Shown piece by piece: positions 8,715 to 55,713 of a stretch of DNA of 64,000 nt. The translations under genes were made by a program, and so were the position numbers. A model generated the notes under the pieces. That model made no database searches and was not told where the DNA came from. It worked only from the letters and a program-made list of their open reading frames with translations. Origin of the DNA: Eubacteriales bacterium (GTDB lineage: Bacteria > Bacillota > Clostridia > Peptostreptococcales > Anaerovoracaceae); assembly GCA_037144355.1 (NCBI GenBank), contig JBAWWY010000007.1, positions 1,083 through 65,082 on the forward strand. The letters run 5' to 3'. The first letter of the stretch is position 1, and each line of letters starts with the position of its first letter.

Positions 8715-8716
8715 AT

Positions 8717-29158: not shown

Positions 29159-29159
29159 C

Positions 29160-29846: not shown

Positions 29847-29902
29847 TTTTTGCTCCGATTCTTGTTTTCTATAATCTATGATTTCTATTTTTAGTCTCTA
29901 TT

Positions 29903-36201: not shown

Positions 36202-36245
36202 AATAATCCTCTTTTCTTACGAGCAAAACCTTTTTTTAATCTTAT

Positions 36246-36581: not shown

Positions 36582-36601
36582 TTGTAATCACCCCTTCAAT
36601 A

Positions 36602-37309: not shown

Positions 37310-37331
37310 AATTATCACCCTGCTGAATTAT

Positions 37332-37547: not shown

Positions 37548-37622
37548 GAAAATCCTCCTACAGACTCCCTTGGTTTATACCCAAGCATTATTTTGATCCA
37601 GTCCTTTTTTTCTTTTCTATTT

Positions 37623-38411
37623 TTATATTAATTCAATAAAATTGTATATCGGCCATGGTCTGCTTTCTTGGAGGAAGTACCCGCTTTCTCCATATTTGTC
37701 GTTGATTTTTTCAATTTCGTCTTTCAAATCCTGAAATTTTATTTTATTCGCTAAAACAACCGCGTTCACGATAAGTTCCACTGAATCAACATCCTCTTCA
37801 TTTATTTCCTTTGTAATAATATTTTCGGACAAGGCTTCAATTCTTTCAAATATCTTCTTCGCATCGCGATTCACGCTATCTTGTATTTGTGATTCGATAG
37901 TGTCTTCCAGCTTTTTTGACAACAAATACGCAATCCCTTTTGGTTTTGCAGTAATTTCCTCAATCTTCTTTTTAACATCCGAAGATTCCAATATTGAACT
38001 TTTCATTTTGTCTTTGTCCAGAAATACTTTGATACTGAACTCGAAATTATTGTCGGCAACTTCCAAGTTTTTAACAATTTTCCCATAATGAGTTTTGAGA
38101 AATTCAGCAACGTTTCTTTCATTTTCGTATATGGTTAGGAACCTCATCGGTAAAACTGAATAATTCTCCATTATCTCTTCAATAATATTTTCATGAGCCA
38201 TTGCCCTTTCTTCAACCCATTCCAAATTATCCAAATGCTTGTTCACTGCATCGCTTTGGAACTCTTGTGAATCGACAAGACTTGATACGGCTTGTATATC
38301 CTTGTAATGAAGTATTTCAACTCGATTTATTCCAGATATAGCCGTTGTTACTGTAATCAATTCATTGTCTGTGATCCCTTTAGTAATGCAGTAAATATAT
38401 ATCAAAGACAT
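37623..38411 (-). CDS. Gas vesicle protein GvpF/GvpL family (copy 2)
   Basis: MSLIYIYCIT...VLPMRF...RPWPIYNF. Start set after RBS gaggggga. Confidence 0.8.
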   Translation of the reverse strand: MSLIYIYCITKGITDNELITVTTAISGINRVEILHYKDIQAVSSLVDSQEFQSDAVNKHLDNLEWVEERAMAHENIIEEIMENYSVLPMRFLTIYENERNVAEFLKTHYGKIVKNLEVADNNFEFSIKVFLDKDKMKSSILESSDVKKKIEEITAKPKGIAYLLSKKLEDTIESQIQDSVNRDAKKIFERIEALSENIITKEINEEDVDSVELIVNAVVLANKIKFQDLKDEIEKINDKYGESGYFLQESRPWPIYNFIELI

Positions 38412-38415
38412 AGTA

Positions 38416-38613
38416 TCAATCCCCCTCTCCCTGATTTTCGGCAAGCAAGTCTAGTAACTCGCCTTCTCTTTCCTCATATTCTTCCTCTGTAATCTCCCCA
38501 AGGTTCAACCTTTGCTCAAGTTCAGCTAATTGTTTTTTTATTGAGGCTGGCCCATATAATTCCTTATCAACTTCATCTTTTATTATCTCTGCCAATTTTA
38601 TTAAAAGCGACAT
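38416..38613 (-). CDS. gvpG: Gas vesicle protein G
   Basis: 65 aa: LIKLAEIIKDEVDKELYGP..LAELEQRLNLGEITEEEYEEREGELL is the typical GvpG pattern. Confidence 0.75.
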   Translation of the reverse strand: MSLLIKLAEIIKDEVDKELYGPASIKKQLAELEQRLNLGEITEEEYEEREGELLDLLAENQGEGD

Positions 38614-38640
38614 TCTTGATCTCCTTATTTATCCTGATAT

Positions 38641-39378
38641 TTATTGAATATTAACAAAACTATATGGAGGAAAAGGTCCTGTACATTTGAAATTCAATTT
38701 ATTTTCATACTTGGCGTCGAGTTCGATTATTAATTTGTCGAAAGCCTCTTCCATATCCTTTCCAATCAGAAATGAGGCGTTTAACACCATTTCATTAGAT
38801 AAATTCTCATTGGCGATGGATTCGTCGGCGAATGCCGAAAGCCTATCAAATATATCATCTTTGTAATTAAGGGAAATCGCGTTCAATTCTCTTTCGATCA
38901 TTTTTCCCACTTCAATAATCAAATTAAGATTCCCGGTTACAATTGTTTTTTCTCTTTTTAATTGTTCAATCACTTGGTTGGAATCTGCGATGGAACTCAA
39001 TACTTCTTCCACATTTGCATGGGATACCTTAACTCCCATTTCAAATTTATTGCTTACCTTGTCAAGCAGGTTCTTAAAACTCATGTACTTTGACTCGAGC
39101 ATTTTAACAACACCTTTTTCATTATCAGCCACAATCCCGAATCTGAATGGCAGAACTGGATATTTTTCCATAACCTTTTCAATTGTCCCTTGGTGGACAA
39201 GATTGTTTTTTCGAGTTGGCCTATATTGCTTAATTTCAGCATTGGAAACCACCGCGGAAATATCCTTGTATTTTATTGTGAAGATTTCCTCATCCTCATT
39301 TTCAATTCCGCCCCTTCCAAATGATGAAACTTCAGGTGCGTTTGTTATGCAATATAGATATAATCCCATTTGCGCCAT
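38641..39378 (-). CDS. Gas vesicle protein GvpF/GvpL family (copy 1)
   Basis: LYLYCIT...VLPFRFG...GPFPPYSF. Confidence 0.8.
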   Translation of the reverse strand: MAQMGLYLYCITNAPEVSSFGRGGIENEDEEIFTIKYKDISAVVSNAEIKQYRPTRKNNLVHQGTIEKVMEKYPVLPFRFGIVADNEKGVVKMLESKYMSFKNLLDKVSNKFEMGVKVSHANVEEVLSSIADSNQVIEQLKREKTIVTGNLNLIIEVGKMIERELNAISLNYKDDIFDRLSAFADESIANENLSNEMVLNASFLIGKDMEEAFDKLIIELDAKYENKLNFKCTGPFPPYSFVNIQ

Positions 39379-39416
39379 TTTGCATCCTTTCTATTGTTAA
39401 ATTCCATGCTGTTCTT

Positions 39417-41540
39417 TTACTTAATCATATAACCTAAATCTTCAATTGCGGTAAAAAAATCTTCCTCCCTGACAATGAAATCCGATATGTCTTCATATTG
39501 AATCTCCTTATGTTCTGCTATATATCTTTTTATAGCCGACATTGCGGCTTTCTTGCAAATATTTTCAATATTGGCCCCTGTAATATTATTTATCTGCTTT
39601 AATATCAATTCAAAATGCATACCGACCTCAACCGGCATCTTGCCTGCGTGAATTCGGAAAATTTCAAGCGCATCTTCAAAACATGGTTCTAATATATTAT
39701 AAATTATATCAAATCTTCCTGATCTCAATAACGCCGGATCTAATATGTCCACCCTATTGGTAGCAGCTAGAATCATAATTCCATCTCTTTTTTCAATGCC
39801 ATCAATTTCCACAAGAAGCTGGCTTAAAACCCTTTCCGAAACCCCTGAATCTCCACCTCCTGAGCCTCTTTTTGGTGCAAGCGAGTCAATCTCGTCAAAG
39901 AATATTATGCAAGGCGACGCAAGTCTTGCCTTTTTAAATACTTCCCTTACTCCTTTCTCACTCTCACCAATCCACTTTGATAATAATTCTGGTCCTTTTA
40001 TATAAATGAAATTTATGCCAGTTTCATTTGCAAGTGCTTTAGCAATCAATGTTTTCCCAGTTCCTGGAGGACCAGACAAAAGGACACCCCTTCCTGGTCT
40101 TACCCCTGTGGCTTCAAATAATTTTGGGTAAAGCAGTGGTAGTCTAATTTCGTTTTCCAGATCGCTTTTAATTTTCTTAAATCCTCCAACATCTTTCCAT
40201 GTAACTTTAGGAACATCCATGAACACCTCTCTCAGTGCTGAAGGTTCGATTTGGTTTACAGCATACATGAAGTTGGCCATATTGACCTTGAGCTGCATAA
40301 TAACGTCGTAAGGAATAGCCCTCAAATTGAAATCAATATCCGGCAGTACTTTCGCCAAAGCATTCATAGCTGCCTCCCTGCATAGATTAGCAATGTCCGC
40401 GCCCACAAAACCATGGGTAATCTCTGCAATCTTCTCAAGGTCCACATCATCATCAAGAGGTATCGACCTTGAATGAACATTTAGTATTTCCAATCTTCCG
40501 TTCTTGTCTGGAACACCAATATAGATTTCCCTGTCAAAACGACCTGGCCTTCTAAGCGCGGTATCTAAAAGCTCCGGCATATTCGTTGCACCAATTACAA
40601 CAATCTGCCCTCGCTTCTCCAACCCATCCATCAGTGTCAGAAGTTGTGTAACAACCCTTTTTTCCACATCTCCCTGAACATCGCCTCGTTTTGGTGCTAT
40701 GGCATCAATTTCATCAATAAAAACAATCGAAGGCGCATTTTTCTTAGCTTCGTCAAAAACCTTTCTTAGGTTTGCCTCGCTTTCCCCATAGAATTTTTGT
40801 ATTATTTCCGGCCCATTTATGCTAACAAAATGTGTTGATGCTTCATTTGCAATTGCTCTTGCAATTAATGTCTTTCCCGATCCTGGAGGTCCATATAGCA
40901 AAACTCCCCTCGGTGGTTCTATCCCTAATTTAACAAACAAGTCAGGATACTTGAGTGGAAGTTCAATCATTTCACGAATTTTTCCAATTTGCTTTTTTAA
41001 TCCGCCGATATCTTCATAAGTTATTTTTCTTTCTGATATCCTTGCATTGCCAGCTTTTAAAAAGAATGCAGTATCCTTGCCAACAACCACAATATCTGAA
41101 GGTTCGGTTTTTTTGACTAGGAAGTCTTCATTGATAAAACCAAACACATTGACTTTAATTACATCTCCTTCGCTTATTGGTTGGCCTTCCATTGCTTTTG
41201 CAAGATATTTTGTGAAATTGCTGTTTTCGTCAATACTTCTTGATGGTTCAATTACAATTTGTTTTGCTTGTATCGCAATTAGTTTCTCAACCTGGACTTT
41301 ATCGTTAATGGCGACACCGGCATTACCCCTTGTGGTGCCATCGATTTCTATGATATTTTTGCCCCTCTCATCAATAAAAGAAGGCATAGCTTTAACAGCC
41401 GTGCGCTTCTTTCCAATAATCTTTATTAGGCTGCCCGTCTCAATCCCAAGTTCGCTGAAAAACAGCGGGTCAATTCTTGCGATTCCTCTTCCTGCATCCT
41501 TGCTTGAACATTCAGATACGCTGAGAAAAATATCGTCCAT
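39417..41540 (-). CDS. CDC48/VAT-type AAA+ ATPase (N-domain + D1 + D2) embedded in the gas-vesicle cluster
   Basis: 707 aa. CDC48-N-like GRGIARIDP...GSLIKIIGKKRTAV, two Walker A motifs (GPPGSGKT, GPPGTGKT), two Walker B motifs (IVFIDEID, IIFFDEID), and SRH regions (ALRRPGRFD, ALLRSGRFD). Confidence 0.85.
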   Translation of the reverse strand: MDDIFLSVSECSSKDAGRGIARIDPLFFSELGIETGSLIKIIGKKRTAVKAMPSFIDERGKNIIEIDGTTRGNAGVAINDKVQVEKLIAIQAKQIVIEPSRSIDENSNFTKYLAKAMEGQPISEGDVIKVNVFGFINEDFLVKKTEPSDIVVVGKDTAFFLKAGNARISERKITYEDIGGLKKQIGKIREMIELPLKYPDLFVKLGIEPPRGVLLYGPPGSGKTLIARAIANEASTHFVSINGPEIIQKFYGESEANLRKVFDEAKKNAPSIVFIDEIDAIAPKRGDVQGDVEKRVVTQLLTLMDGLEKRGQIVVIGATNMPELLDTALRRPGRFDREIYIGVPDKNGRLEILNVHSRSIPLDDDVDLEKIAEITHGFVGADIANLCREAAMNALAKVLPDIDFNLRAIPYDVIMQLKVNMANFMYAVNQIEPSALREVFMDVPKVTWKDVGGFKKIKSDLENEIRLPLLYPKLFEATGVRPGRGVLLSGPPGTGKTLIAKALANETGINFIYIKGPELLSKWIGESEKGVREVFKKARLASPCIIFFDEIDSLAPKRGSGGGDSGVSERVLSQLLVEIDGIEKRDGIMILAATNRVDILDPALLRSGRFDIIYNILEPCFEDALEIFRIHAGKMPVEVGMHFELILKQINNITGANIENICKKAAMSAIKRYIAEHKEIQYEDISDFIVREEDFFTAIEDLGYMIK

Positions 41541-41552
41541 TTGAAATACTCC

Positions 41553-42092
41553 CTATTTAATTAGTTTCTTTAAACTCAATTCAAGCATTCCATTTACATA
41601 ACTTTTTTTGATTGGCTCCTGTTCTACTTCGCTCTTGAACAACAGTTCCTTTTCATATTCCCTAGTAGTCGATTTTGCTGAAATCTGAACAATATCTCCA
41701 TTGATAATGACTTTTATATCATCTTCCGAAACCCCTGGGATTTCTGCTATTACAGTGTAAGTTGCCCCTTCATCCATAATATCCACAATTGGCTCCCGAG
41801 TAGAATCAATAAAAACCTCCCCGTCCTTTTCATCTTTTTTAATCTTGTTTCCAAATTCTTCTATGGATGTGCTGCCATCCAGTGTCCTGACAGTAAATCC
41901 ATAGATACCTTTAACTTTTCCTCCCGTTTCGCTCAAAGTCCCTTCTCTTTTTATTTCGCCTCCGCTCAAATCAGAAACAGTGTTCATGATATCCTTCAAA
42001 CCACCAAACAATTTTCCCAAACCAAAATCAATGTTTATATTTATATCACCCTTCTCATCAATTTTTATATTTCCTTTTTTTTTATCATCCAT
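41553..42092 (-). CDS. Hsp20/alpha-crystallin-family small heat-shock protein (gas-vesicle-cluster associated)
   Basis: C-terminal ACD: YTVIAEIPGVSEDDIKVIINGDIVQISAKS...YVNGMLELSLKK. Confidence 0.7.
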   Translation of the reverse strand: MDDKKKGNIKIDEKGDININIDFGLGKLFGGLKDIMNTVSDLSGGEIKREGTLSETGGKVKGIYGFTVRTLDGSTSIEEFGNKIKKDEKDGEVFIDSTREPIVDIMDEGATYTVIAEIPGVSEDDIKVIINGDIVQISAKSTTREYEKELLFKSEVEQEPIKKSYVNGMLELSLKKLIK

Positions 42093-42118
42093 AACTATTA
42101 TTCACCTGCCAATATGCT

Positions 42119-42451
42119 TTAATATTCTACTTCAATAATTTTAATTTTATTGTATGGGTTGTTCTCATTCAGTTTTCCAGGTTGATAATACCCAGTGCCA
42201 ACCTGTACATCTCTTCGCCTTTGAGATATATATGCTTCCATGTCATCGATTTCACTTTCAACTCTGTTTAATTCGTATTTAGCTGCATTAGCCTTAGTTT
42301 CACAAGTCGTTATAATATTTTGCAGCATGTTTTTTCTTGAATGAAGTACCTGCAAGTCGAAATAGATAGACCCTTCTTTCTTTGGAATGCTGCTGAGTGG
42401 CCTACTGGATACTTGGGTCTTACAGAAACTGCCTCTATTTTTAATTATCAT
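42119..42451 (-). CDS. Hypothetical protein within the gas-vesicle cluster
   Basis: 110 aa with a good RBS (aagaaggga). Predicted helical middle section. No family recognised. Confidence 0.4.
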   Translation of the reverse strand: MIIKNRGSFCKTQVSSRPLSSIPKKEGSIYFDLQVLHSRKNMLQNIITTCETKANAAKYELNRVESEIDDMEAYISQRRRDVQVGTGYYQPGKLNENNPYNKIKIIEVEY

Positions 42452-42531
42452 GTTTAAATCCCTTCTTTACAAAATCTAAAATTTTCGTCATTCAACCTGA
42501 CAATTTACTAATGATGCAATTATATTCATGC

Positions 42532-43494
42532 TCAACAATGCTTGTTGATGAGTTCATCAACTACCTGTTTGCTAATATTCTTAGAATCGTTTTCCATTGC
42601 CAAATTGTTAATCTTGGAGCATAACATGTCATAAGCCACTTTACGGAAAAATGCATCCTTCTTTGATGCGTGACAATTGTTTTCCTTCAATATCTTCCCC
42701 ATCATAACTCCAACCCTTAGGGATGGAATCGATGAATATGATCCATTATTCCTAAAATCCCTTATCAAGTTTACAATTTTGTCTGCATCCTCATAAGCGA
42801 TATTTGCTCTTCCCCTTACAATTTCCCTTTCTGTCTCGGCATCCATATATCCCATATTGATTGTTATCATCCTGTCAAGAAGGGCATCCTGGATTTTATG
42901 AACTCCAGCATATTCTTCCGAATTGCTGGTGAAAATAGCCTTAAAATTCGGATGAACTTTTACATATCTTTCGGAGCTCATCGAATCGCTTGTTTCCAAC
43001 ATTCTTTCTTCGAATATATTTAGTAGAATATTATTCGTTTCTGGCCTTGAACGATTAAATTCATCATATATAAGAGTAAAACCGTTTCTGCATGCAATAG
43101 TAAGCTGGTTGTCAACCCACTTCTTTTGATAGTCATCAACGGTTTTCAATACGGAGTGTATGTAATTGTCAACAAGTTTCTCTCTTCTATATCCGGCCTC
43201 CGAACCAACGAGGTCAGAAGGAAGATATTCATCATTGCCATGAATGATTGTTACCGGGACATTGAAGCAAGAGGCTACGTGCATGGCAAGGGTTGTCTTG
43301 CCTGTACCGGCAGGTCCCCTTAGATGAACAGGATATCCGGCATTCAGATATCTGGTGACTCTCATGGTCAGCTCTTTTATATATGGTGTAATAACATACG
43401 AATCTTGCTTCTTCAGCCTTATCGCAACCGGTTCGTATGGATTTTCCGACCTTTCAATAATATCGATTTGCTCAATTTGACGGATTTGCTCCAT
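42532..43494 (-). CDS. gvpN: Gas vesicle protein N (MoxR/CbbQ-like AAA+ ATPase)
   Basis: YPVHLRGPAGTGKTTLAMHVA (Walker A) and LIYDEFNR (Walker B). The size and position after the gvpO-like gene fit gvpN. Confidence 0.8.
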   Translation of the reverse strand: MEQIRQIEQIDIIERSENPYEPVAIRLKKQDSYVITPYIKELTMRVTRYLNAGYPVHLRGPAGTGKTTLAMHVASCFNVPVTIIHGNDEYLPSDLVGSEAGYRREKLVDNYIHSVLKTVDDYQKKWVDNQLTIACRNGFTLIYDEFNRSRPETNNILLNIFEERMLETSDSMSSERYVKVHPNFKAIFTSNSEEYAGVHKIQDALLDRMITINMGYMDAETEREIVRGRANIAYEDADKIVNLIRDFRNNGSYSSIPSLRVGVMMGKILKENNCHASKKDAFFRKVAYDMLCSKINNLAMENDSKNISKQVVDELINKHC

Positions 43495-43520
43495 TCTCAA
43501 CACCTCCCCGCTTTTTACTC

Positions 43521-43793
43521 CTACGCTGAAGGTTCAATTGGTCCAATGTCGGTCCTCTCTCGCAAATGCATTCGCTTGAAGCCCATAACCATTCCATTGT
43601 CGTCCAATTCCACTTCATAAAGACCAACTAGGTCGGTCTTTGCAAATTTCCTAACATACTCGGATTCCTCAATAATTTCAAAATGGGAAACCCACTTATT
43701 TTCTTTCTTTACAAGTTCAATTATCTTACCGGTTTGGCTGAAATTACCGGAAATAAATTCGAGCACCTTATCCCTGATCTGGATAAATTCCAT
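43521..43793 (-). CDS. gvpO: GvpO-like gas vesicle protein
   Basis: 90 aa: ...WVSHFEIIEESEYVRKFAKTDLVGLYEVELDDNGMVMGFKRMHLRER. This resembles the GvpO/GvpR C-terminal pattern (Y-x-V-x-L-D..G-x-V-x-G-(F/Y)-x-R). Start set at MEFIQ, which follows gaggggg. Confidence 0.55.
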   Translation of the reverse strand: MEFIQIRDKVLEFISGNFSQTGKIIELVKKENKWVSHFEIIEESEYVRKFAKTDLVGLYEVELDDNGMVMGFKRMHLRERTDIGPIEPSA

Positions 43794-43820
43794 AAAAAAA
43801 CCCCCTCGCTCCAATTACTG

Positions 43821-44123
43821 TCAATCTGTCTTTTTTTCCGGCATATAACTTCTGATAACCTGGTAAAACATGCCGATTTCATTTAATATGTTCGATCTGG
43901 CTGATGGGTTTGTTGTTTCTGATAATGAGTTGAATCTTTTCAACACTTCATCAATGTAATCCCCCAAGGCTTGAAGCTGCTTATTTGCTTCAATGTCCTG
44001 GCTATTGGATATCATAATGTCAATTTTTTCTTTCAAATTGGGAAGAGCCTGGATTATCTCTTCATAGACTCTTTCCATTTCATCATTTCTTCTATCGATA
44101 TCATCATTCATATCCTGCGACAT
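43821..44123 (-). CDS. Hypothetical acidic helical protein within the gas-vesicle cluster
   Basis: 100 aa. No family recognised. Confidence 0.4.
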   Translation of the reverse strand: MSQDMNDDIDRRNDEMERVYEEIIQALPNLKEKIDIMISNSQDIEANKQLQALGDYIDEVLKRFNSLSETTNPSARSNILNEIGMFYQVIRSYMPEKKTD

Positions 44124-44163
44124 CGTAATCTTCCTCTCTTAGTTACAAACGGTTAACTTATAA

Positions 44164-44643
44164 TTAGCTCGGCTTGGTTTTTCTTTTAACAGTGTTCCAT
44201 TCTTTTCTCGCACCAGACATATCCTTGTGAAAACCACCTAACATTCCGCCGACATTATCTCTCAAATCATTTGCAAAAGCATTAAGTGATGTTCTTGTAT
44301 CATCGCCCATGTTTTTTCTTGCTTCATTGAAATCTGCAATCATTCCACTTACATCGGTTTTCAACTTGTTCAGTTCTAAAACTCTAATTCTTGTATCTTC
44401 TATACTGTTTCTTATTCTTTGCTTTCGATAATCATTAATCATATTGCTGACCTCTGACTTTAGTTTTTTAAGTTCGGCCATTCTATGCTTGGTATCATCC
44501 AAATTCATCTTTGTTCTATGTTTGCGAAAATTATTCATCATATTTACATTAGTCTTTTTTAAAGAACGAATGTATCCCTGCCTTTTATCATAATTGCTAT
44601 CTATATCCATTCTCAATGATCTCATCGCACTGGTTAAACTCAT
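44164..44643 (-). CDS. Repeat protein made of 33-residue units, directly downstream of gvpA (candidate GvpC-like gas-vesicle shell-stiffening protein)
   Basis: 159 aa from MSLTS, after RBS ggaaggaggt. Consecutive 33-aa units: NMMNNFRKHRTKMNLDDTKHRMAELKKLKSEVS / NMINDYRKQRIRNSIEDTRIRVLELNKLKTDVS / GMIADFNEARKNMGDDTRTSLNAFANDLRDNVG, then a partial unit GMLGGFHKDM... Units 2 and 3 match at 16 of 33 positions. Confidence 0.6.
   Translation of the reverse strand: MSLTSAMRSLRMDIDSNYDKRQGYIRSLKKTNVNMMNNFRKHRTKMNLDDTKHRMAELKKLKSEVSNMINDYRKQRIRNSIEDTRIRVLELNKLKTDVSGMIADFNEARKNMGDDTRTSLNAFANDLRDNVGGMLGGFHKDMSGARKEWNTVKRKTKPS
44248..44643 (-). repeat. Four tandem 99-nt (33-codon) coding repeats
   Basis: Period seen in the translation: aa 1-33, 34-66, 67-99, 100-132. 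The repeats are degenerate at the DNA level. Confidence 0.6.
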
Positions 44644-44677
44644 GATGTCTACCTCCTTCCAATATTCATTTAACATT

Positions 44678-45204: not shown

Positions 45205-46410
45205 GTGGTGCTGGGTTTGTCCAAAAATCAACAATTAAGATCTGACATTATACGCCAAGCCAATTCAGGATTACTAACCGTTCCAAAAGCTGCCTTTGCC
45301 CTTGGTATATCAGAAAGACAAGTTCAACGTCTGAAGAAAATTATGAGAATTTCGGATTCTGGTGATTCCTCTGGTTTGAATTCTATTAGGAAAGCATACA
45401 ACTCCATACCCGAAGATATTAAAAATAGTATTCTTGAGATAAAAAATCAGGAAGAATATATTAATTGTAATTTTTATAATTTCAATGAAATACTAAGTAA
45501 TTTCTATGATATAAAAATTAGCTACTCAACTTTATATAAAATCTTATCATACAATGGATACAAATCTCCGAAAACCAGGAGACGTTTCAAAAGGCATACT
45601 AGAATTAAAAAAATAACTAATAGCCGGGTGCTTTTTCAATTAGTCTCCCCATCATTTGCATGGTTTGGGAATAAGGAAGAATATATTCTACATATTGATA
45701 TAGCGAATACCCCTTCACAGATTTCTGCTATTTATTTGAAAAGTAGTGAAGATTCTATTAATGTCACTAGTATGAAAGAGTCTCCTAAAAAGTTTTCAAA
45801 GTTTATTGGTGAGGAAGATAGCAATGACAAAAGTCTTTCCATAGTAAGGTTGCCGGATTCCGATTGGATTTCCATAACGCCCCATGGTAATACAGTTTAT
45901 CAAAATAACAGTAATCATTTTGGCAAACCTCCAAAAAAAAATATTGGGACCAAGCTAATAGCCCCTAGATCCCCACACAGCAAGCTTCGTATCGATAGAC
46001 TTTGGGAAATTCTACAGGGTTGGCTTTCAATAGAGTTTGCTCAAAGGGAAATTAAAAGCATAGATCAAGCAAATAAATATCTTCGCGTTTTTGTTCAAGC
46101 AAATACACCTCTCGGCAGTTATATTTCAAATTTAAACGACCGATTTATTCTGCCTATGGATAGTCTTGAGGGCGATATAATTAAAGCACTTGCAAAGTTT
46201 AATTTTGATGAGGATTTCATGCGCAAGAAGAAGCTATCCATGAAAAGAGCCGGACTTGTTTCAATAAAAAACGCCAGCTTCAAAATGGATAAGCAGTTGT
46301 TTGAAAAAAAGAATTTTGAAGAATATATGAAAAGAAGAGTTGTTTATAAAAATCGTGATACTGAAATTTTAGATATGATTTCAGAAATATTCCAAAAGAG
46401 CTATAAATAG
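45205..46410 (+). CDS. ISNCY-like transposase-derived HTH protein with a degenerate catalytic core (possibly domesticated)
   Basis: N-terminal HTH (AAFALGISERQVQRLKK). Collinear with the ISNCY-type transposase pattern: Y..FN..F.E.L...Y.I.ISYSTLYKIL; L-Q-x-[D]-xSP..WF here reads LFQLVSPSFAWF (Asp replaced); IDDAT here reads IDIAN; SPQAKGRIER here reads SPHSKLRIDR. GTG start. Confidence 0.55.
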   Translation: MVLGLSKNQQLRSDIIRQANSGLLTVPKAAFALGISERQVQRLKKIMRISDSGDSSGLNSIRKAYNSIPEDIKNSILEIKNQEEYINCNFYNFNEILSNFYDIKISYSTLYKILSYNGYKSPKTRRRFKRHTRIKKITNSRVLFQLVSPSFAWFGNKEEYILHIDIANTPSQISAIYLKSSEDSINVTSMKESPKKFSKFIGEEDSNDKSLSIVRLPDSDWISITPHGNTVYQNNSNHFGKPPKKNIGTKLIAPRSPHSKLRIDRLWEILQGWLSIEFAQREIKSIDQANKYLRVFVQANTPLGSYISNLNDRFILPMDSLEGDIIKALAKFNFDEDFMRKKKLSMKRAGLVSIKNASFKMDKQLFEKKNFEEYMKRRVVYKNRDTEILDMISEIFQKSYK

Positions 46411-46433: not shown

Positions 46434-46465
46434 AAAAAGGAGATGGTTTTATCCATCTCCTTTTC
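46434..46465. terminator. Bidirectional terminator between the convergent genes 45205-46410 and 46476-47126
   Basis: AAAAAGGAGATGG-ttttat-CCATCTCCTTTTC. Confidence 0.8.
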
Positions 46466-46475: not shown

Positions 46476-47126
46476 TTAATTATTCATAAGCTCATTTGCC
46501 AGGGTAACTGCCTCTGCCGCGTTTTCGCTAAAACCATCGGCTCCAATCTTTTGGCACCATCTGGAAGTTACAGGTGCTCCACCTACCATTGTTTTAAATC
46601 TGCCTTTGAGTCCACGTTCTTTCAACAGAGACTCCAGCTTTTGTTGCTGTATCATGGTAGTGGTGAGCAATGTGCTTGTGCCAATAATATCCGCATTATG
46701 TTTAACGGCTTCTTCAATGATATTCTCATTGGAGACATCCCTTCCAAGATCAATGACTTCAAAGCCGTTGGCAACTAAAAGCGAAGCAACAATGCACTTG
46801 CCTATGTCATGTAAATCGCTCTCAACGGTTGCAAGTATTATTCTGCCCTTTTGCTTCCTCTTTTCTCCCCGGTCCTCCATTGCCTTGTTGAGAATTTCCA
46901 CAGCTTCCTTTATTGCATCTGCCGCCATCATGACTTCAGGTAAAAACACTTCGCCATCTTCAAACAAATCCCCTATTTCCATAATCCCTGGTACAAATCC
47001 CTTTTCTATAAATTCTTCAGGCTCAACTCCATCGTCAAGACCCTTTTGTGCGAGAGATAGGGCGAGAATTTTATCGCCATCAATGATGGATTGCTTTGCT
47101 GCTTCTAATAATTTAGAATCAATCAT
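46476..47126 (-). CDS. Methyltransferase-cognate corrinoid (B12-binding) protein, MtbC/MttC-like
   Basis: 216 aa. The B12-binding-2 cap is followed by ESDLHDIGKCIV (DxHxxG), then GTSTLLTTT and GGAP. Its ATG overlaps the stop of mtbB by 1 nt. Confidence 0.85.
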   Translation of the reverse strand: MIDSKLLEAAKQSIIDGDKILALSLAQKGLDDGVEPEEFIEKGFVPGIMEIGDLFEDGEVFLPEVMMAADAIKEAVEILNKAMEDRGEKRKQKGRIILATVESDLHDIGKCIVASLLVANGFEVIDLGRDVSNENIIEEAVKHNADIIGTSTLLTTTMIQQQKLESLLKERGLKGRFKTMVGGAPVTSRWCQKIGADGFSENAAEAVTLANELMNN

Positions 47127-48544
47127 TATTTTTGTCCCCTCTCATGCATATATTTTGGGAGATACATTCCAGTCTTCTTTGAGAATTTCTCAACACAGTT
47201 GATTTCAATATCCAGCAATTTTGAGATATTTGCCTTAGCTTCAATTCCCCGACTTACAGCTCCATAACCCATAAATATAGTTCCAATATCCAACTCTTCC
47301 CTTCGCTCCCGCATGACAACCTCATCGGTTAGATCAAGCAGGCTTACTCCGAGTTTTTCTGCAACATATCTTTTTGCTTCATCGAGTTTCATGCTCTTTG
47401 CAAGCTGCATTCTTGACACCAGATCTCCGGCTGTCCTTATGCCGCCCATTCCAGATGCTTGACTGTGAACAATTGCCATTCCAGAGGGATCGCCATAGCC
47501 TACCTACAACCCATCCAACTTTCCGATTTCCGCCATTGCCGTAGATGCTCTAGAGACGCAGTCAATTGGTGGAGTAATTTGCATTGGAACTCCTCCGACT
47601 CCCATGCCCACATTTGCGTGCACTGGTATTGGAGAAACCTCTGCGGCATATTTGCACATTGTCAGTGCTCTTGCAAGGTTCCATGGGAAACTTTTTCTAG
47701 TATTGGTATTCACTACTGCTCCAAATACGTTTCCACCAGCTTCGGCTACAATCTTCGCTTGGTCGTGTGGGTACATTCCTGCTAGCCTTTTACCCTTGTA
47801 CTCAAGCTCGCTATGGAATCCCAGCACAAATTCTCCCGACATTCCAACTTCAATATTAATATCAGGATACTTAGCTCTCAGCCTCTCAACTCCGTGAAGA
47901 ACAGCATAAAATTCAGCATCTCCCCCTGCTGCAGTAGTATCGAAATCAATTCCGTCGGCACCAGCTTCATACATTGCCGATCCAACAACGTTTATATCTT
48001 TTATCAGCATTTCTGCTGCCATGACCTGTGCCTCTTGAGCTTCTTTTATAAACCCTTTCGGCATCAGCTCAGCTGAATTCTCGCATGGGCCGTCAGGTTT
48101 TGTATACATTGGCATATTTGGCATTGCGCCATAAAGCAAAGGTGGCGTGGTTACCAGAAGTGCTTCGGCAACAGCATACTGCTCTTCAGGCAAGATGGAT
48201 TTCACGGATTTGAAACTATAATGAACGTAAGCCATCTCCAGGGTATCTGCCATCATCGCCCTTTCATATAATTGAAGTATCTGAGGCATAGCTATAGGAA
48301 TTCCCAGTCTGGTAATCTTCAGGGGCTGAGAATCGTAGCTTAAAACAAGTTCATTCCCGCGTTCCACGCTTACGAATTTTCTCGGCTCACAGATTATGCC
48401 CATCAATCTTTCAATATCGTCATCTGTAAGTGGTGGGCATTTTGCTTTCTTAGCTGCTGTCATTACTCCGTCTTCGATATCTTTTCTGATTTCTGAAGTT
48501 GACATTTCAATAAAATAACCGTCTCCCATTCTCGTTAAAACCAT
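47126..48544 (-). CDS. mtbB: Dimethylamine methyltransferase MtbB with an in-frame UAG (predicted pyrrolysine) at codon 347
   Basis: Track ORFs 47504-48580 and 47126-47479 are in the same frame and are separated only by TAG (47506-47504) plus 8 sense codons. Read-through gives ...AEIGKLDGL-[UAG][29 protein letters not shown]... The full 472-aa product is collinear with archaeal MtbB as I recall it (~467 aa, Pyl ~356), e.g. [39 protein letters not shown]. Start is [10 protein letters not shown], after RBS aaggaga. Confidence 0.85.
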
Positions 48545-48611
48545 AAGTTTTCTCCTTATAATAACAAGTGCTATAAGCAACTAAAAATATATATGGTAGG
48601 TTAATATAATA

Positions 48612-51600
48612 CTATTTATTATCAAATGTTTCAAAATTTTTATTAATGACATTCTCTGCGAATACCTTGACAATTTCCGGATCAAATTGCACCCCGGAAT
48701 ATTTTAAGATTTCATCAATTGCTTCCTGCTGGGTCAAAGCACTACTGTAGGCTCTTTGGCTTGTCATTGCATCATATGCGTCTGCGATTGATATTATCCT
48801 GGCTTGAATGGAGATCTCTTTTCCTTTTAATCCTCTTGGATAGCCAGAGCCATCCCATTTTTCCTGATGTTCCAATACATAATTTGCTACCTCGGAAAAT
48901 TCATTTACTGAGCTGAGAATTCTATAACCTATTTCAGAATGTTTCTTGATTTCGTTCCATTCTTCATCAGTAAGTTTTTCTGGCTTGTTTAGAATTTTTT
49001 CGTCGATACCGATTTTCCCAATATCATGCATCAATCCTGCAATTTTAATTTGTTTGATTGTATCTTTTTCCAAATTCAATTTTCTGGCCAATGATTCACA
49101 AATTTCACTTACTCTCTTCGAATGGAGCATTTCCCTATGGTTCTTCTCGTATAGGGTATTCATGATTAAATCAATTGTCTTGCTTCTCATACTTGAGCTT
49201 TCATAGAGTTTATGTCGATACATATTGTCCTCAGTATCTTTAAAGACATCTTGAATTTTTTCATCTTTTTCATGCTTGGTCTGAAAACCAAAAGAAACAG
49301 ATAGATTGATAGATCCCACTTTTTCATTTGACAGAAATGTATTTATACGCTGAATTATTTTTTCGGTTTCTATCGAGTCCGTATTTGGTAGAATAATTAC
49401 AAACTCGTCACCTCCCAGCCTAGCGACGATGTCATCCTCCCTACACCCACATTTAATTGCGTCTGCAGTTTTCTTAAGTAGTTCATCTCCCACATTGTGG
49501 CCAAATGAGTCATTAATAAGTTTCAAGCCATTTACATCACCCATGACAATGGTCATAGGAAGATTTCTTGGCGTATCCAATCTTGTTAGCTCTTCTTCGT
49601 AAAATCTACGATTGTAGAGATTAGTCAAGTGGTCGTGGAAGCTTAGATATCTAATTTCTTCTTCTGTCCTTTTTCTTTCATCAATATTTCTACTCGTTCC
49701 GACTATCTCGATTTCTCCATTGGCATTGTATCTGTATCTAGTTACAATTTCCACCCAGATTATATCCCCATTTTTGCAAGGTTGCTGGATTTCGGTTGCT
49801 TGTGAGTTTTCTTCATTTGGATTTTCAATAAAATATTTAATATCCTTTATCATAGTTTCTTTTACTAGCGACAACGATTCAGAAGTTAAGGCATCTTCCA
49901 GTTTTTCATTGATTCCCTCTTGGACGGTAATTCCTCGCAATTTGTATATGGATGGGCTTAGATAAGCGAATTTTTCTTTTGACACATTATATATCCAAAT
50001 TACATCAGATATATTCTCTGTAATTAACCTGTATTTTTCCTCGCTAGCCCTTATCAATTCTTCAGATTCTTTTTTTTCTGTAATATCTCTTATGCTCTCT
50101 ATCACACCGATTATTTTCCCTGCTGAATCATGAAGTGGAGATGCCTTGGTATAAATCCATGCACCTTTATTGTTATGGAGCGCTGGGCAGAAGACTTCAG
50201 CCACCAATGCTTCATCTTCACGTTTCATGTTCTTATATCTGCCTGCGACTTCTTCATTGTAATCAAGAACCAAGTCCATCAATTGTGGTCTCGCATCCCC
50301 GTAGAATGGTATAGTATAAGCATATTCTCCCTTTCCAATCATTTCGGGAGCAGCTATGCCGGTCATCTTCTCAATAGCTTTGTTCCAAATTATTACACGC
50401 TTTTCCATGTCTATGCCAAGAGTCGCATCCGGCAAAAATTCAATTATATCCATTAATTCCTTTTGTTTCGACTGTAGCTTTTCAGCCGAATTTACCCTAT
50501 CGGTAATATCCCTTATGGAAATTAAAATAACATTTCGGTTATCCATTTTGAAAATGCTTGCTGTAATCTCCACGGGGAACTTAGATCCATTCTTTCTCTT
50601 ATGGTATCTAATGGGGATTAATGTATATGTTCCCTGTATCTCTTCAATCGTCTTAAGTGTTTCTTCTGGTTCTGCAGAAATGTCAGTAATCTTCATTTTC
50701 AAAAATTCTTCGATGGAATATCCATAAACAAAAGAAGCTGCATTATTTGCCTCGAGTATTGAAGTTGTTTCATGATCGATTATAAAAAGGGAATCGCTTT
50801 CTAAAGCAAATATATTGCGATATCTATCCTCACTTTCCTTCAATGCCTCTTCCGCATTTTTACGTTCGGAAATATCTCTTGTTATCCCCTGAAATCCAAT
50901 GATGCTTCCATCATCTTCTCTTATAAATGAAATATGCATTGATACCCAGAAAGTTGAGCCATCGGCTCTATACATTTTTGTTTCAATTTGTCTTGTTCTA
51001 TCTTTATGGATCTGAGGATTATTTTCATTCCCAATTTCTTCCGTTATGATAGACCTTATTTCATTTAAAAATTCTGGGGGGAATTTCTCTTCCATGTTCC
51101 TACCCATATATTTATCGCTTGGCTCACCTATTAGTTTTTCAGCGGAAGGGCTGATATATAGCAATTTGAGGTTGTTGTCAACCACCCAGATGACGTCGGA
51201 GATGTTTTCGGCAATTCTACGATATTTTTTTTCATTCTCTTTCAATTTGAGTTGTAACTCACTTTTTGAGAACTGATTTGCTAAAAGAATGCAAAGAAGG
51301 TAAGTTCCAATTGGATAAAGAACTAATACCGGAATGGCGATGCTCTTTAAAACGCTTTCAATTTGCTCTTTCGGGAAAGCAAACATGCAAAGGAGCATTA
51401 CAATATGAGTTATAACGCCAAAAAAATAAAACTCAAACTTGAATGAGCTTTTTTTATTTAATATTTTATTCAAACGATAATGGTGCCACAAAACTCCCAG
51501 CAAGCCAGTTGTGGAAATGACTAAAATACCTGCGTAAATCCCAGAACCACCTATTATAATTCTATAGGCTACCATCATGGATCCTGCAACAAGCGTCGGC

Positions 51601-51845
51601 AATAATCCGAAGAACATTCCTGTAGCGCCGATTAATATGGATCTTGTATCAAAAATTCCTCCACCACTAAGTTTCACGGCGGTAGTCATAATCAGGAAAC
51701 CGGCAAAACCAATGACAATACCCAAAGCCAATTGCAGCAGCCATTTTGGACCGCGCATTTCTCTTTGGAAAAGTGTAAATATCAATGCCAAGGTTAAAAG
51801 AAGAGTTACATTATAAATAAGCCCAATAATAGAATTGTTATCCAT
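48612..51845 (-). CDS. Membrane-anchored multi-PAS signalling protein with GGDEF (diguanylate cyclase) and HD-GYP (c-di-GMP phosphodiesterase) output domains
   Basis: 1077 aa. N-terminal ~6 TM (5TM-LytS-like), several PAS units (repeated ITERK/ITEKK boundaries), RLGGDEFVIIL (GGDEF), and HDIGKIGI...HQEKWDGSGYPRGL (HD-GYP). Confidence 0.85.
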   Translation of the reverse strand: MDNNSIIGLIYNVTLLLTLALIFTLFQREMRGPKWLLQLALGIVIGFAGFLIMTTAVKLSGGGIFDTRSILIGATGMFFGLLPTLVAGSMMVAYRIIIGGSGIYAGILVISTTGLLGVLWHHYRLNKILNKKSSFKFEFYFFGVITHIVMLLCMFAFPKEQIESVLKSIAIPVLVLYPIGTYLLCILLANQFSKSELQLKLKENEKKYRRIAENISDVIWVVDNNLKLLYISPSAEKLIGEPSDKYMGRNMEEKFPPEFLNEIRSIITEEIGNENNPQIHKDRTRQIETKMYRADGSTFWVSMHISFIREDDGSIIGFQGITRDISERKNAEEALKESEDRYRNIFALESDSLFIIDHETTSILEANNAASFVYGYSIEEFLKMKITDISAEPEETLKTIEEIQGTYTLIPIRYHKRKNGSKFPVEITASIFKMDNRNVILISIRDITDRVNSAEKLQSKQKELMDIIEFLPDATLGIDMEKRVIIWNKAIEKMTGIAAPEMIGKGEYAYTIPFYGDARPQLMDLVLDYNEEVAGRYKNMKREDEALVAEVFCPALHNNKGAWIYTKASPLHDSAGKIIGVIESIRDITEKKESEELIRASEEKYRLITENISDVIWIYNVSKEKFAYLSPSIYKLRGITVQEGINEKLEDALTSESLSLVKETMIKDIKYFIENPNEENSQATEIQQPCKNGDIIWVEIVTRYRYNANGEIEIVGTSRNIDERKRTEEEIRYLSFHDHLTNLYNRRFYEEELTRLDTPRNLPMTIVMGDVNGLKLINDSFGHNVGDELLKKTADAIKCGCREDDIVARLGGDEFVIILPNTDSIETEKIIQRINTFLSNEKVGSINLSVSFGFQTKHEKDEKIQDVFKDTEDNMYRHKLYESSSMRSKTIDLIMNTLYEKNHREMLHSKRVSEICESLARKLNLEKDTIKQIKIAGLMHDIGKIGIDEKILNKPEKLTDEEWNEIKKHSEIGYRILSSVNEFSEVANYVLEHQEKWDGSGYPRGLKGKEISIQARIISIADAYDAMTSQRAYSSALTQQEAIDEILKYSGVQFDPEIVKVFAENVINKNFETFDNK

Positions 51846-52359: not shown

Positions 52360-53715
52360 TTAAATATGCTTAAGTAGCTTACCCAAATTACGTGCTTTAA
52401 TCTCATTATTTTCAACCGCTATCTGTCCATTGACAATTATATAATCTATACCATCAGGTGGAGCGTTTGGGTCCCCTCTGCCAATATAGTCAGATTTATC
52501 TTTAATTTTCTTTAAATCTAAGATAAGCAGGTCAGCGTCTGCTCCCTTGTCAATAAAACCCTTGCCAATTATTCCAAATCGTTTGGCAGGTAATATGGTA
52601 ATTTTCTTGATGGCCTCAACCAAATCAATTATTTTTTCCTCCACTACATACCTTTTGATAAGTTTTGCAAATGTGCCTGATGTTTCAGGGTGGCCGATTT
52701 TCGTATAATGCGGTCCATCGGCAGCATTTGTGGAAATATATACATAGGGTTTCACAATTGACTTTTCAATTTGCTTTTCATCGCAGGCAAATACAGTTAC
52801 AAGGGTGTTTGGGAACTCTTCTCTGAGATATCTAAATAACTTTTCATCGCAATAGTTACCTGCATAGATTCCTGATGATATTAGCAAATTCTTGACCCCT
52901 ATATTATTGCCATATCCCTTCTCCCATCCTTTATCCAGTATTGAAGAACCGATGCAAGATGGAAATGCTGAATAAATTCCTGTATCTGCTGTGATATCTA
53001 TACCTTCGCTTCTAGCTGAATCAATTATTTCAAGTGCCTGGTCCATGACTCCCTGAAATCCAACCATATACATCAAGTGCAATATATGCACAGCTGCCCC
53101 CGTAATTCTGCAAATTTCGATAATCTCCTTAAATGTGTCAATTGCCTCCTGCCCATCTTTCCGTAAATGGATTAGTAATACTCTTTCATATTTTTTTGCC
53201 GTTTCTGCGATTCGAAGGATTTCTTCAAATGATGTTCCTGGAACAAACTCTAAGCCTAAATGAATACAATACGCCCCGTTTTCAAAAAATTGTTCTGCAA
53301 GGTATGACATCGCATCAATTTCCTTTTGTGTCGCAGGCTTATATCTTTCCTTTATACCTACAGCCGGTCTAAGTGTAAATGAGTGAGAGAAATTGAACCC
53401 ATGATTAAGAAGGAACCCCTTCCTTTCAATATCAAAAATAGCCCGTCCATCAAAACTTCTTTCTCCGCCAAGTGTTGTTGTCGCACCCTGCCTTAGAACA
53501 CATTCAGCTGAAAATTCTTTTCCATCAACGTGAGAATGAAAATCAATAAAACCTGGAGATATGATTTTCCCCACACCATCGATCTTTATCTCTGCATCAA
53601 CAATGTCATCAGTAATCTCAACGATTTTACCAGATTTAATCCCAATGTTTTTCTTGATAATGCTATCATTGACCACATCGATAAATTTCGCACCATTTAT
53701 TGCAATATTGTTCAT
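52360..53715 (-). CDS. Metal-dependent amidohydrolase (D-aminoacylase / cyclic amidase-like), paralogue 2
   Basis: 451 aa, collinear with 24133-25521: SPGFIDFHSHVDGKEFSAECVLRQGATTTLGGER..., ITILPAKRFG, DADLLILD. Confidence 0.75.
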   Translation of the reverse strand: MNNIAINGAKFIDVVNDSIIKKNIGIKSGKIVEITDDIVDAEIKIDGVGKIISPGFIDFHSHVDGKEFSAECVLRQGATTTLGGERSFDGRAIFDIERKGFLLNHGFNFSHSFTLRPAVGIKERYKPATQKEIDAMSYLAEQFFENGAYCIHLGLEFVPGTSFEEILRIAETAKKYERVLLIHLRKDGQEAIDTFKEIIEICRITGAAVHILHLMYMVGFQGVMDQALEIIDSARSEGIDITADTGIYSAFPSCIGSSILDKGWEKGYGNNIGVKNLLISSGIYAGNYCDEKLFRYLREEFPNTLVTVFACDEKQIEKSIVKPYVYISTNAADGPHYTKIGHPETSGTFAKLIKRYVVEEKIIDLVEAIKKITILPAKRFGIIGKGFIDKGADADLLILDLKKIKDKSDYIGRGDPNAPPDGIDYIIVNGQIAVENNEIKARNLGKLLKHI

Positions 53716-53748: not shown

Positions 53749-55713
53749 TTATTCTTTTGATTTTTGCTTTGCCAGATTATAGATAGTTGTCCTGTTTATT
53801 TTTAAAATTCTTGCTGCTTCACTAACGTTTCCATCAGTTTGTCGCAAGACTTTATTTATATGAGACTTGACAGTTTCATCAAGGGATAATTCTGTATTCC
53901 CTTCTCCCAGCTTACCGTTAACATTATTCATCTGAACTATATCTGATGGAAAATCTTCTCTCTTGATCTTATTATCTTCTGACATCATAATAGCTCTTTC
54001 TACAGCATTATGAAGCTGTCTTATATTCCCAGGCCAATCATAATATTCAAGTAAAGCCATAACTTTCTTGTCTATACTCTTTTTCGTATTGAATTCCTTT
54101 ATGAAATGTTCAACAAGCAAAGGTATGTCTTCTCTTCGTTCTCTTAATGCCGGTAATTTAATGTAGATGACATTTAACCGATAATAAAGATCTTCTCTGA
54201 AATTCCCTCTCTTGACTTCGTCTTCAAGATTGCAGTTTGTTGCAGTTAGAACCCTTACATCAATTGGTATAGGTGTCGTTCCCCCTATACGTGTGATTTT
54301 TTCCTCTTGAAGAACCCTTAGCATTTTAGCTTGCATTTCCATGGGCATATTGCCAATTTCATCAAGGAAAATAGTTCCACCATTTGCCAGCTCAAATTTT
54401 CCAAGTTTGCCATCGCGACGTGCGCCGGTAAAAGCTCCTTCCTCGTATCCAAACATTTCGCTTTCAATAAGCGCATGGGGAATGGCTCCACAGTCTACAG
54501 CTATAAAAGGCTTGTTTTTCCTCAAGCTTTCATTATGTATTGCCTGAGCAAACATTTCCTTGCCAGTTCCACTTTCCCCCTCAATCAAAACCTTGAAATT
54601 GTAATTTGATGCCTTTTGTGCAAGGGAAATCGCTTCTTTGATTTTATTTGAATTTCCGATTATTTGATTGAAAGTAAAAAAAGCCGTATATTTGTTTATC
54701 TTTCTAGCAAGCATTCGAATTTCTTCGGTCCTTGTAAATATAAGCACATAACTAGATTGGCTTTCATCAATATATTCCAAGCTAAGTAGGCAGTGCTGGA
54801 TTTTATTTTTTTGCTTTACGCTTACTTCCACATACTTGTCAACTTTTATACGGTTTAAGGCTTCCTCAATGCCAGGTGTTGTTTTTATTGCATCCCATAA
54901 AATTTTGCCGATGACTTCGTTGTCCTTCTCCCCAAGAATTTCAGCCATGGCTTTGTTTATCTGAGCTATTATTCCATTTTTAACGTAAACAACTCCATCA
55001 GTTACTGCGCTTAACGTTGCTGCAAGATGACTGTTATTTTCAATAAGAACGTTGTTTATTCTCTGAATTCTGATTTCGTTTTCAATAGCTTTTGCAGTGG
55101 CTGCTATCATGCCTAAAGTATGTTCGTGGGTCAATTCATATCTACCTGAAATATTTATTATTCCTAGTAAATTATTATTTGAATCCAAAATTGGCGCTGC
55201 TGAACATGTCCATCTATGCAGTATCTGCCTATAATGTTCCGCACCAGCTATTTGGATGGGATGCTTGTTTATTTTTGCCATTCCAGTGGCAGTTGTTCCC
55301 ATTACTTCTTCCGACTGGTTTGATCCAGGTAGCGAATTGGTCTTTTGAGACAATTCAAGTGTTTCAGCATCCCCCATTGTTATCAAAACATTACAGTGTC
55401 TATCGCATAAATCTACCCTGAATCCAGAATTTTCAACTAGTTTGAAAAGCATCTTCATGAAGGGAAGTGCAACATTGATAAAACTTTTATTGTCGCTTTT
55501 TAGACTCTCCAATTTGCTTTCCGAAATTAGTTCCTGCTTTTTAATATCCAATGGATCAAGGCCAAAATTTCTACAACGTTTCCATGATTCCGCTACTTCC
55601 ATTTCTATTATGTCACTGTTAACTTGTCCTGACTTGATAAAATCCACCCATGCATTTTCAAAGGCAAGCAGTTCAGGGCTATAATGATAATAAAACGGGT
55701 TGAAATTGCTCAT
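53749..55713 (-). CDS. Sigma-54-dependent transcriptional activator, paralogue 2
   Basis: 654 aa, collinear with 25539-27521: GESGTGKEMFAQAIHN, FIAVDCGAIP, GAFTGA, FLDEIGNMPMEMQAKMLRVLQE, and a C-terminal HTH. Confidence 0.9.
   Translation of the reverse strand: MSNFNPFYYHYSPELLAFENAWVDFIKSGQVNSDIIEMEVAESWKRCRNFGLDPLDIKKQELISESKLESLKSDNKSFINVALPFMKMLFKLVENSGFRVDLCDRHCNVLITMGDAETLELSQKTNSLPGSNQSEEVMGTTATGMAKINKHPIQIAGAEHYRQILHRWTCSAAPILDSNNNLLGIINISGRYELTHEHTLGMIAATAKAIENEIRIQRINNVLIENNSHLAATLSAVTDGVVYVKNGIIAQINKAMAEILGEKDNEVIGKILWDAIKTTPGIEEALNRIKVDKYVEVSVKQKNKIQHCLLSLEYIDESQSSYVLIFTRTEEIRMLARKINKYTAFFTFNQIIGNSNKIKEAISLAQKASNYNFKVLIEGESGTGKEMFAQAIHNESLRKNKPFIAVDCGAIPHALIESEMFGYEEGAFTGARRDGKLGKFELANGGTIFLDEIGNMPMEMQAKMLRVLQEEKITRIGGTTPIPIDVRVLTATNCNLEDEVKRGNFREDLYYRLNVIYIKLPALRERREDIPLLVEHFIKEFNTKKSIDKKVMALLEYYDWPGNIRQLHNAVERAIMMSEDNKIKREDFPSDIVQMNNVNGKLGEGNTELSLDETVKSHINKVLRQTDGNVSEAARILKINRTTIYNLAKQKSKE

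Follow-up and report, generated by a model that had tools for sequence, protein, structure and literature searches.

The locus described here lies on the minus strand of a 64,000-nucleotide stretch (hereafter the window) of contig JBAWWY010000007.1, from an Eubacteriales bacterium. It comprises mtbB, a dimethylamine methyltransferase gene with one in-frame UAG codon, and the gene of an MtbC-like corrinoid protein (Table 1). Translation of positions 47126-48544 yields 472 codons and a terminal TAA, the only internal stop being the TAG at 47506-47504 (codon 347). Two open reading frames (ORFs) of this region, 47504..48580 and 47126..47479, both on the minus strand, share one frame, and the codons VGYGDPSG that follow the UAG lead straight into ATG 47479 of the second ORF. 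The in-frame UAG of the mtbB frame was confirmed in all details. The start codon of mtbB is probably the ATG at 48544-48542, which is preceded by a ribosome-binding site. In a consensus scan, the number of sigma-70-like sites in the mtbB region did not exceed that in shuffled sequences, and the promoter listed in Table 1 stays a candidate. Gene callers cut mtbB into products of 346 or 358 residues and 117 residues in every assembly of the organism that contains the gene.

When the stop is masked, the joined protein scores 621.6 bits against the Pfam family PF09505 (Dimeth_Pyl), residues 4-456 aligning with positions 5-462 of a profile of 463, and it passes the NCBIfam equivalog model TIGR02368 (483 bits for a cutoff of 369.1). 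Judging from these profile scores, 47126-48544 encodes a genuine, full-length MtbB, the [dimethylamine--corrinoid protein] Co-methyltransferase. A sequence search of the PDB found no MtbB structure. The ATG of the downstream gene overlaps the TAA of mtbB as TAATG, which points to translational coupling. Its product is a B12-binding protein in which DLHDIG matches the DxHxxG motif; it passes TIGR02370 (pyl_corrinoid, 'methyltransferase cognate corrinoid protein'; 235.8 for a cutoff of 215.3) and misses the narrower archaeal MtbC equivalog model (212 for a cutoff of 350). Downstream of it lies an intrinsic terminator hairpin with a minimum free energy (MFE) of -19 kcal/mol (z = -7.2), a stability reached by none of 200 shuffles; with an A-tract and a U-tract on its flanks, it may terminate transcription from either side. 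Together, mtbB and mtbC form a two-gene operon of a low-GC Clostridia bacterium, and its closest relatives are found in metagenome-assembled genomes (MAGs) labelled Peptostreptococcales and Anaerovoracaceae. The preliminary description of this DNA had seen two co-framed ORFs split by a TAG and the codons VGYGDPSG, had joined them into a 472-residue MtbB with the UAG at residue 347, and had placed a coupled DxHxxG corrinoid gene downstream; the translation, the scores of PF09505 and TIGR02368 and, for the corrinoid gene, DLHDIG, the TAATG overlap and the TIGR02370 match bear out all of this.

Related loci were collected by a scan of GTDB species genomes, which do not include the window's own genome. 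Fourteen loci from Clostridia and Desulfobacterales MAGs were obtained, at 46-96% protein identity, the top match being a MAG whose MtbB is 96% identical. All 14, from two phyla, carry TAG, and never TAA or TGA, at the identical alignment column. In the 13 loci that are readable to the end, the frame stays open for 115-126 codons past the TAG, with neither a frameshift nor a second stop; in the fourteenth (L005), the contig ends 16 codons past the TAG. The same column marks the end of most database entries: among the 120 best homologues, 118 terminate with xDG[L/I], directly ahead of this column, and are fragments of between about 328 and 391 residues, exactly 346 in 76 cases. The UAG of codon 347 also falls on positions 1-3 (UAG) of the Rfam model RF02509. 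In the Desulfobacterales locus L015, the column corresponds to codon 356 of a 467-residue protein, which matches the pyrrolysine position of Methanosarcina barkeri MtbB. Two full-length homologues, P0099 (468 residues) and P0101 (466 residues), 48-49% identical to the window protein, show Q and L, respectively, at residue 353, which is the pyrrolysine column. These residues could have arisen if the gene caller translated the TAG with an alternative code, or the two proteins could be real sense-codon variants of MtbB.

Selection was compared on the two sides of the UAG, with ten Clostridia homologues as reference. Past the UAG, the proportion of non-synonymous differences (pN) is 0.09-0.15, and before it 0.07-0.17, while synonymous sites are saturated (proportion of synonymous differences, pS, 0.72-0.98). 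Purifying selection is as strong on the 125 codons past the UAG as on the 346 codons ahead of it. A nonsense mutation might have truncated mtbB and left the downstream 125 codons to decay, a scenario that agrees with the two separate gene calls and with the frequent use of TAG as an ordinary stop in this genome (see below). However, a decaying gene should keep neither a TAG at one column in 14 of 14 loci from two phyla, nor a frame free of further lesions in 13 homologues, nor a post-TAG pN as low as that of the N-terminal part while pS is saturated. We therefore regard the pseudogene as effectively refuted by the conservation analysis, and leave it next to no probability. The preliminary description had named a pseudogene as an outcome that would speak against its reading, and had placed the UAG close to the known pyrrolysine position; equal purifying selection on both sides excludes the former, and the RF02509 alignment together with the 14 TAG loci upholds the latter.

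A second possibility is a split enzyme devoid of pyrrolysine: translation would stop at the UAG and restart at ATG 47479, and polypeptides of 346 and 117 residues would form an active or a regulatory complex. This ATG lies only eight codons past the UAG, its methionine is conserved, and all assemblies call both pieces as separate genes. However, in the 11 sequences compared, all eight codons that separate the UAG from ATG 47479 vary synonymously, and only one change is non-synonymous, so that VGYGDPSG is kept at the protein level and these codons must be translated. The low pN past the UAG with saturated pS likewise argues against a split gene. Moreover, ATG 47479 is not preceded by a Shine-Dalgarno-like sequence, homologues inside pyl clusters have their pyrrolysine codon at the same column, and pyrrolysine is regarded as catalytically essential in this class of enzymes (PMC9842639). 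We consider a split enzyme very unlikely.

Among the relatives, pyl genes accompany mtbB in several lineages. In the Desulfobacterales loci L015 and L016, pylT and pylSc/pylSn stand beside mttB, mtbB and mtbC; in L015, a single cluster contains pylT-pylSc-pylB-pylC-pylD-pylSn, mttB, mtbB and mtbC. Firmicutes loci contain complete pylSc-pylD-pylT-pylB-pylC-pylSn clusters. Upstream of the cluster one usually finds a corrinoid gene and an mtbB with this same TAG, often together with a RamA-type activase; one of these clusters is followed by a pterin-binding methyltransferase. The gene order of the Firmicutes loci L029, L037, L038, L058 and L059, with pylT between pylD and pylB and a small pylSn after pylC, differs from that of L015. 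ARAGORN detected no pylT in L041 or in L049, the latter ending inside pylD. A PylSc profile search of the protein collection gave 5291 matches, of which the best 120 are all Desulfobacterales- or Desulfitobacterium-like, and a search of representatives at 50% identity gave about 25 full-length PylS clusters. One of them, the AT-rich cluster P0243, corresponds to a Firmicutes clade of some 2000 PylS sequences that includes Dethiosulfatibacter aminovorans, Anoxybacterium hadale and three PylSc proteins labelled Anaerovoracaceae. Neither Dethiosulfatibacter in combination with pyrrolysine nor the accessions of the samples yielded anything in the literature. Two further candidates were rejected: the PylS candidate P0260, of another cluster, is archaeal and belongs to another organism, and the contig of the MtbB paralogue candidate P0020 is also from another organism.

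Taking the conserved column, the selection past it and the relatives together, we hold it highly probable that UAG 347 of mtbB is read as pyrrolysine, and the interpretation given in the preliminary description, a bacterial mtbB decoded with pyrrolysine, is supported. During translation, an amber-suppressor tRNA(Pyl) with anticodon CUA, carrying pyrrolysine that PylB, PylC and PylD produce and PylS attaches, would read UAG 347 in competition with the release factor. Successful suppression would give the 472-residue dimethylamine:corrinoid methyltransferase with pyrrolysine in its active site, whereas upon failure release factor 1 would terminate translation and leave a 346-residue fragment. 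If MtbB works like the solved enzymes MtmB and MttB (PMC9842639), pyrrolysine would bind and activate dimethylamine, and the Co(I) corrinoid of the co-translated MtbC would receive one methyl group. A pterin-binding methyltransferase is then expected, in a bacterium, to demethylate the methyl-corrinoid to tetrahydrofolate, and a RamA-type activase to re-reduce the inactive corrinoid. We infer in this way both the chemical role of pyrrolysine and the downstream methyl acceptor in this bacterium. The tetrahydrofolate methyltransferase, the activase and the pyl genes would all have to lie outside the window.

Several observations weigh against this reading, and they concern the pyl genes, the RNA around the UAG and the use of TAG as a stop. 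As already noted in the preliminary description, the window contains neither pylTSBCD nor a methyl-acceptor methyltransferase: over its 64 kb, ARAGORN found no tRNA gene and Rfam gave no tRNA match, tblastn with PylSc, PylSn, PylB, PylC, PylD, MttB and methyl-tetrahydrofolate methyltransferase gave no match, and the other ORFs have unrelated functions according to their Pfam and NCBIfam annotation. The flanks could be reached through other assemblies of the organism (NCBI MAG GCA_964616105.1; ENA ERZ4224321, ERZ4223250 and ERZ4201038; Logan SRR12676969 and SRR12676970), and neither the 10 kb adjoining the window on the left nor the roughly 5 kb adjoining it on the right contains a pyl gene. 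Five bacterial PylS candidates of the Firmicutes clade (P0444, P0470, P0562, P0594 and P0243) all trace to contigs of other organisms, and among the cluster members listed none shows the combination of NCBI, ENA and Logan records expected for this organism. Nor does linkage lend support: in none of the 11 genomes with the window's MtbB subfamily that were examined does a pyl gene lie within 10 kb of mtbB. Firmicutes hold two such subfamilies, only one of which is linked to pyl clusters: the pyl-linked proteins have an N-terminal part of 349-352 residues and are 47-50% identical to the window protein, whereas members of the window's subfamily have an N-terminal part of 346 residues and at least 75% identity. 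We infer that pyl genes lie elsewhere in this genome, from the presence of the mtbB gene and from the relatives.

These absences bear on a third possibility, that the UAG is read through without pyrrolysine of the cell's own making. The genome would lack pylBCD or all pyl genes, and a near-cognate or other suppressor tRNA would insert a standard residue, or pyrrolysine would be scavenged from the surroundings. Besides the failure to locate the pyl genes of this genome and the fact that its MtbB subfamily never adjoins them in the genomes examined, the Q and L of P0099 and P0101 agree with this scenario, unless they are artefacts of gene calling. In contrast, the strict TAG of 14 loci, with no sense codon among them, is what dependence on pyrrolysine predicts, relatives of the same order hold complete pyl clusters, and no natural case of such read-through is known for methylamine methyltransferase genes. 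This third possibility is, in our opinion, unlikely.

The RNA around the UAG was also considered, as RF02509 represents PYLIS_2, the mtbB pyrrolysine insertion sequence, and its match in the window lies well above the gathering score (Table 1). The segment folds no better than its shuffles (MFE -25.1 kcal/mol, for a shuffle mean of -26.8; z = +0.49). In the 14 bacterial sequences, 66.7% of the cells belonging to consensus pairs of RF02509 are paired, compared with 65.8% in shuffles, and covariation does not exceed chance (66 of 500 shuffles reach the score). A conserved PYLIS RNA structure was rejected here on these three grounds. The RF02509 match mirrors the conserved coding sequence, which includes O-V/I-G-x-G-D-P. 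A PYLIS match devoid of structure agrees with the view that insertion of pyrrolysine needs no dedicated RNA element, and decoding at codon 347 is probably independent of one.

Depletion of TAG, a signature of pyrrolysine decoding, is absent as well: of the 57 curated genes of the window, 19 end in TAG (20 of 61 ORFs in a first, mechanical pass). The distance to the next in-frame stop shows no clear difference after TAG and after TAA. Since TAG ends about one third of the genes, UAG is ambiguous, and decoding must compete with termination; constitutive suppression of UAG would be costly. Decoding probably relies on this competition, on pyl expression induced by the substrate, or on both. In Acetohalobium arabaticum, UAG is reportedly ambiguous too, and the pyl genes are said to be induced by trimethylamine. 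In the window, three TAG-ended genes continue in frame, through 4-6 sense codons and no stop, into the gene that follows (Table 1), a run-on seen for only one of 33 TAA-ended genes; the numbers being small, this excess could be due to chance. If UAG were suppressed, such TAG-linked pairs would yield fusion proteins. One may imagine either that the organism has no complete pyl cassette of its own and uses scavenged pyrrolysine or another suppressor, or that pyrrolysine decoding deliberately remodels proteins through read-through fusions such as Hsp20-CDC48 or permease-alcohol dehydrogenase; we find this pair of proposals improbable.

UAG-encoded pyrrolysine in mtbB has been known from Methanosarcina since the years 2000-2002. 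In M. barkeri, MtbB1-3 and MtbC form a dimethylamine:corrinoid methyltransferase system with UAG-encoded pyrrolysine, as PMC7593587 relates in citing Paul, Ferguson & Krzycki 2000. The window gene resembles it in belonging to the same family (TIGR02368), in its single UAG at the homologous column, in its adjacent corrinoid gene and in its length (472 residues, compared with about 467). It differs in its bacterial host, in the position of the pyrrolysine codon (347 rather than 356, the N-terminal part being shorter), in a corrinoid protein that falls below the archaeal MtbC cutoff, in the expected methyl acceptor (tetrahydrofolate instead of coenzyme M), and in the fact that TAG is a common stop in its genome.

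Bacterial MtbB of the pyrrolysine type has been known since 2007, and the window mtbB joins this class. The Olavius symbiont data set contains seven MtbB, six of them in the delta1 symbiont, and the counts of pyrrolysine-containing proteins are 0 MtmB, 7 MtbB and 3 MttB (PMC1976440). The published counts do not bear out the remark of the preliminary description that, among bacteria, mtbB is reported less often than the other two genes. By 2013, mtbB had been catalogued in nine pyrrolysine-decoding organisms (PMC3639795). The MtbB of Deltaproteobacteria (the Olavius algarvensis delta1 symbiont and the Desulfobacterales loci L015-L018) share with the window protein a bacterial host, a downstream mtbC and the same TAG column, but are only 46-48% identical to it, and the mtbB of L015 and L016 lies inside a pylT-pylS-pylBCD-mttB cluster whereas that of the window stands alone. 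The Firmicutes loci L029, L041, L049 and L058 are from the same bacterial class and likewise have an mtbB with TAG and a corrinoid gene; unlike in the window, their mtbB is pyl-linked, belongs to the other subfamily and often lies near a RamA-type activase. Systems based on MttB are found in Desulfitobacterium hafniense, Acetohalobium arabaticum, Bilophila wadsworthia and Anaerovoracaceae (a pyrrolysine-type mttB was described in the last in 2023; PMC10653893). They also use UAG as pyrrolysine in a methylamine:corrinoid methyltransferase, but the MttB family, PF06253, is not homologous to PF09505, and its substrate is trimethylamine.

The locus adds an uncultured Clostridia lineage to the bacteria that apparently use the 22nd amino acid to demethylate dimethylamine, which is of relevance for methylamine turnover in anoxic habitats. 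Standard gene callers split such genes, truncated calls of pyrrolysine methyltransferase genes are known in public annotation (PMC7593587), and NCBI already labels such fragments '[dimethylamine--corrinoid protein] Co-methyltransferase' in Clostridia MAGs (for example P0102). The value of the observation is one of annotation and ecology, not of a new mechanism.

Table 1. Features of the mtbB-mtbC locus and of other parts of the window
Feature	Position	Strand	Basis or remark
Sigma-70-like promoter candidate, TTGAAA-17 nt-TATTAT	48606..48634	-	about 60 nt upstream of mtbB start; 10 of 12 consensus matches
Ribosome-binding site, AAGGAG	48552..48557	-	7 nt ahead of ATG 48544; read from sequence
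mtbB codons 1-346 (before the UAG)	47507..48544	-	translation, PF09505, TIGR02368
UAG codon 347, predicted pyrrolysine codon	47504..47506	-	translation, RF02509 alignment, homologue column
mtbB codons 348-472 and TAA (47126-47128)	47126..47503	-	in frame, no other stop
PYLIS_2 (RF02509) match	47407..47506	-	62.4 bits, gathering score 36, model positions 1-100
Cognate corrinoid protein, MtbC-like, 216 residues, DLHDIG	46476..47126	-	PF02607, PF02310, TIGR02370
Intrinsic terminator hairpin, 13-bp stem, A-tract and U-tract flanks	46434..46465	-	after mtbC
ISNCY-like transposase gene	45205..46410	+	NF033594, E = 3.4e-35, below family cutoff; directly past the mtbBC terminator, outside the operon
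5TM-LytS/PAS/GGDEF/HD-GYP signalling protein	48612-51845	-	upstream of mtbB
Amidohydrolase	52360-53715	-	upstream of mtbB
Sigma-54 activator	53749-55713	-	upstream of mtbB
Amino-acid permease into Fe-alcohol dehydrogenase	57591-58985 into 56409-57572	-	TAG-linked pair
Hsp20 into CDC48-type double AAA ATPase	41553-42092 into 39417-41540	-	TAG-linked pair, gas-vesicle cluster
ECF S-component into HGD-D dehydratase	22721-23311 into 21560-22708	-	TAG-linked pair
GvpO	43521-43814	-	gas-vesicle cluster
GvpN-like AAA_5 ATPase	42532-43503	-	gas-vesicle cluster
Three GvpL/F paralogues	36602-39378	-	gas-vesicle cluster
GvpK	36246-36581	-	gas-vesicle cluster
GvpA	35920-36201	-	gas-vesicle cluster
Xanthine-dehydrogenase-family enzyme	13729-16485	-	in the 2593-19807 cluster
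T-box leader	1710-1981	-	RF00230, 96.3 bits; upstream of DAHP synthase gene 602-1618

Beyond the terminator of the operon, no convincing terminal inverted repeats of an insertion sequence were found around the transposase gene. Assemblies of the same organism break in this region. The short-read contigs ENA NODE_204 and NCBI CAZTSV010000004.1 end at the end of mtbC, a Logan contig ends about 360 bp beyond it, and ENA NODE_43 starts about 55 bp inside mtbC (by coordinate arithmetic that assumes no indels). The junction of NODE_204 and NODE_43 looks like a k-mer overlap at a repeat or a strain-variable junction.

Upstream of mtbB, the minus-strand genes of Table 1 are followed, up to position 58985, by a DUF3156 gene, the Fe-alcohol dehydrogenase gene, whose product resembles the choline dehydrogenase GbsB (below cutoff), and the amino-acid permease gene. 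The genes between 48612 and 58985 may form a catabolic unit controlled by sigma-54.

Elsewhere in the window, a gas-vesicle gene cluster occupies 35920-44676 on the minus strand, in an apparently anaerobic Clostridia genome. A large cluster on the same strand, at 2593-19807, is typical of a selenium-dependent molybdenum hydroxylase; besides the xanthine-dehydrogenase-family enzyme, it encodes XdhC, MoCF biosynthesis, TusA/DsrE, a Se/S carrier, a class-V aminotransferase, an AMP-binding enzyme, a radical SAM protein and a methyltransferase. Close to it lie a BcrAD/HGD-D activator-dehydratase pair and ModABC/ModE-like molybdate uptake genes (28064-31691). The DAHP synthase gene downstream of the T-box leader stands at the edge of an aromatic amino acid biosynthesis cluster.

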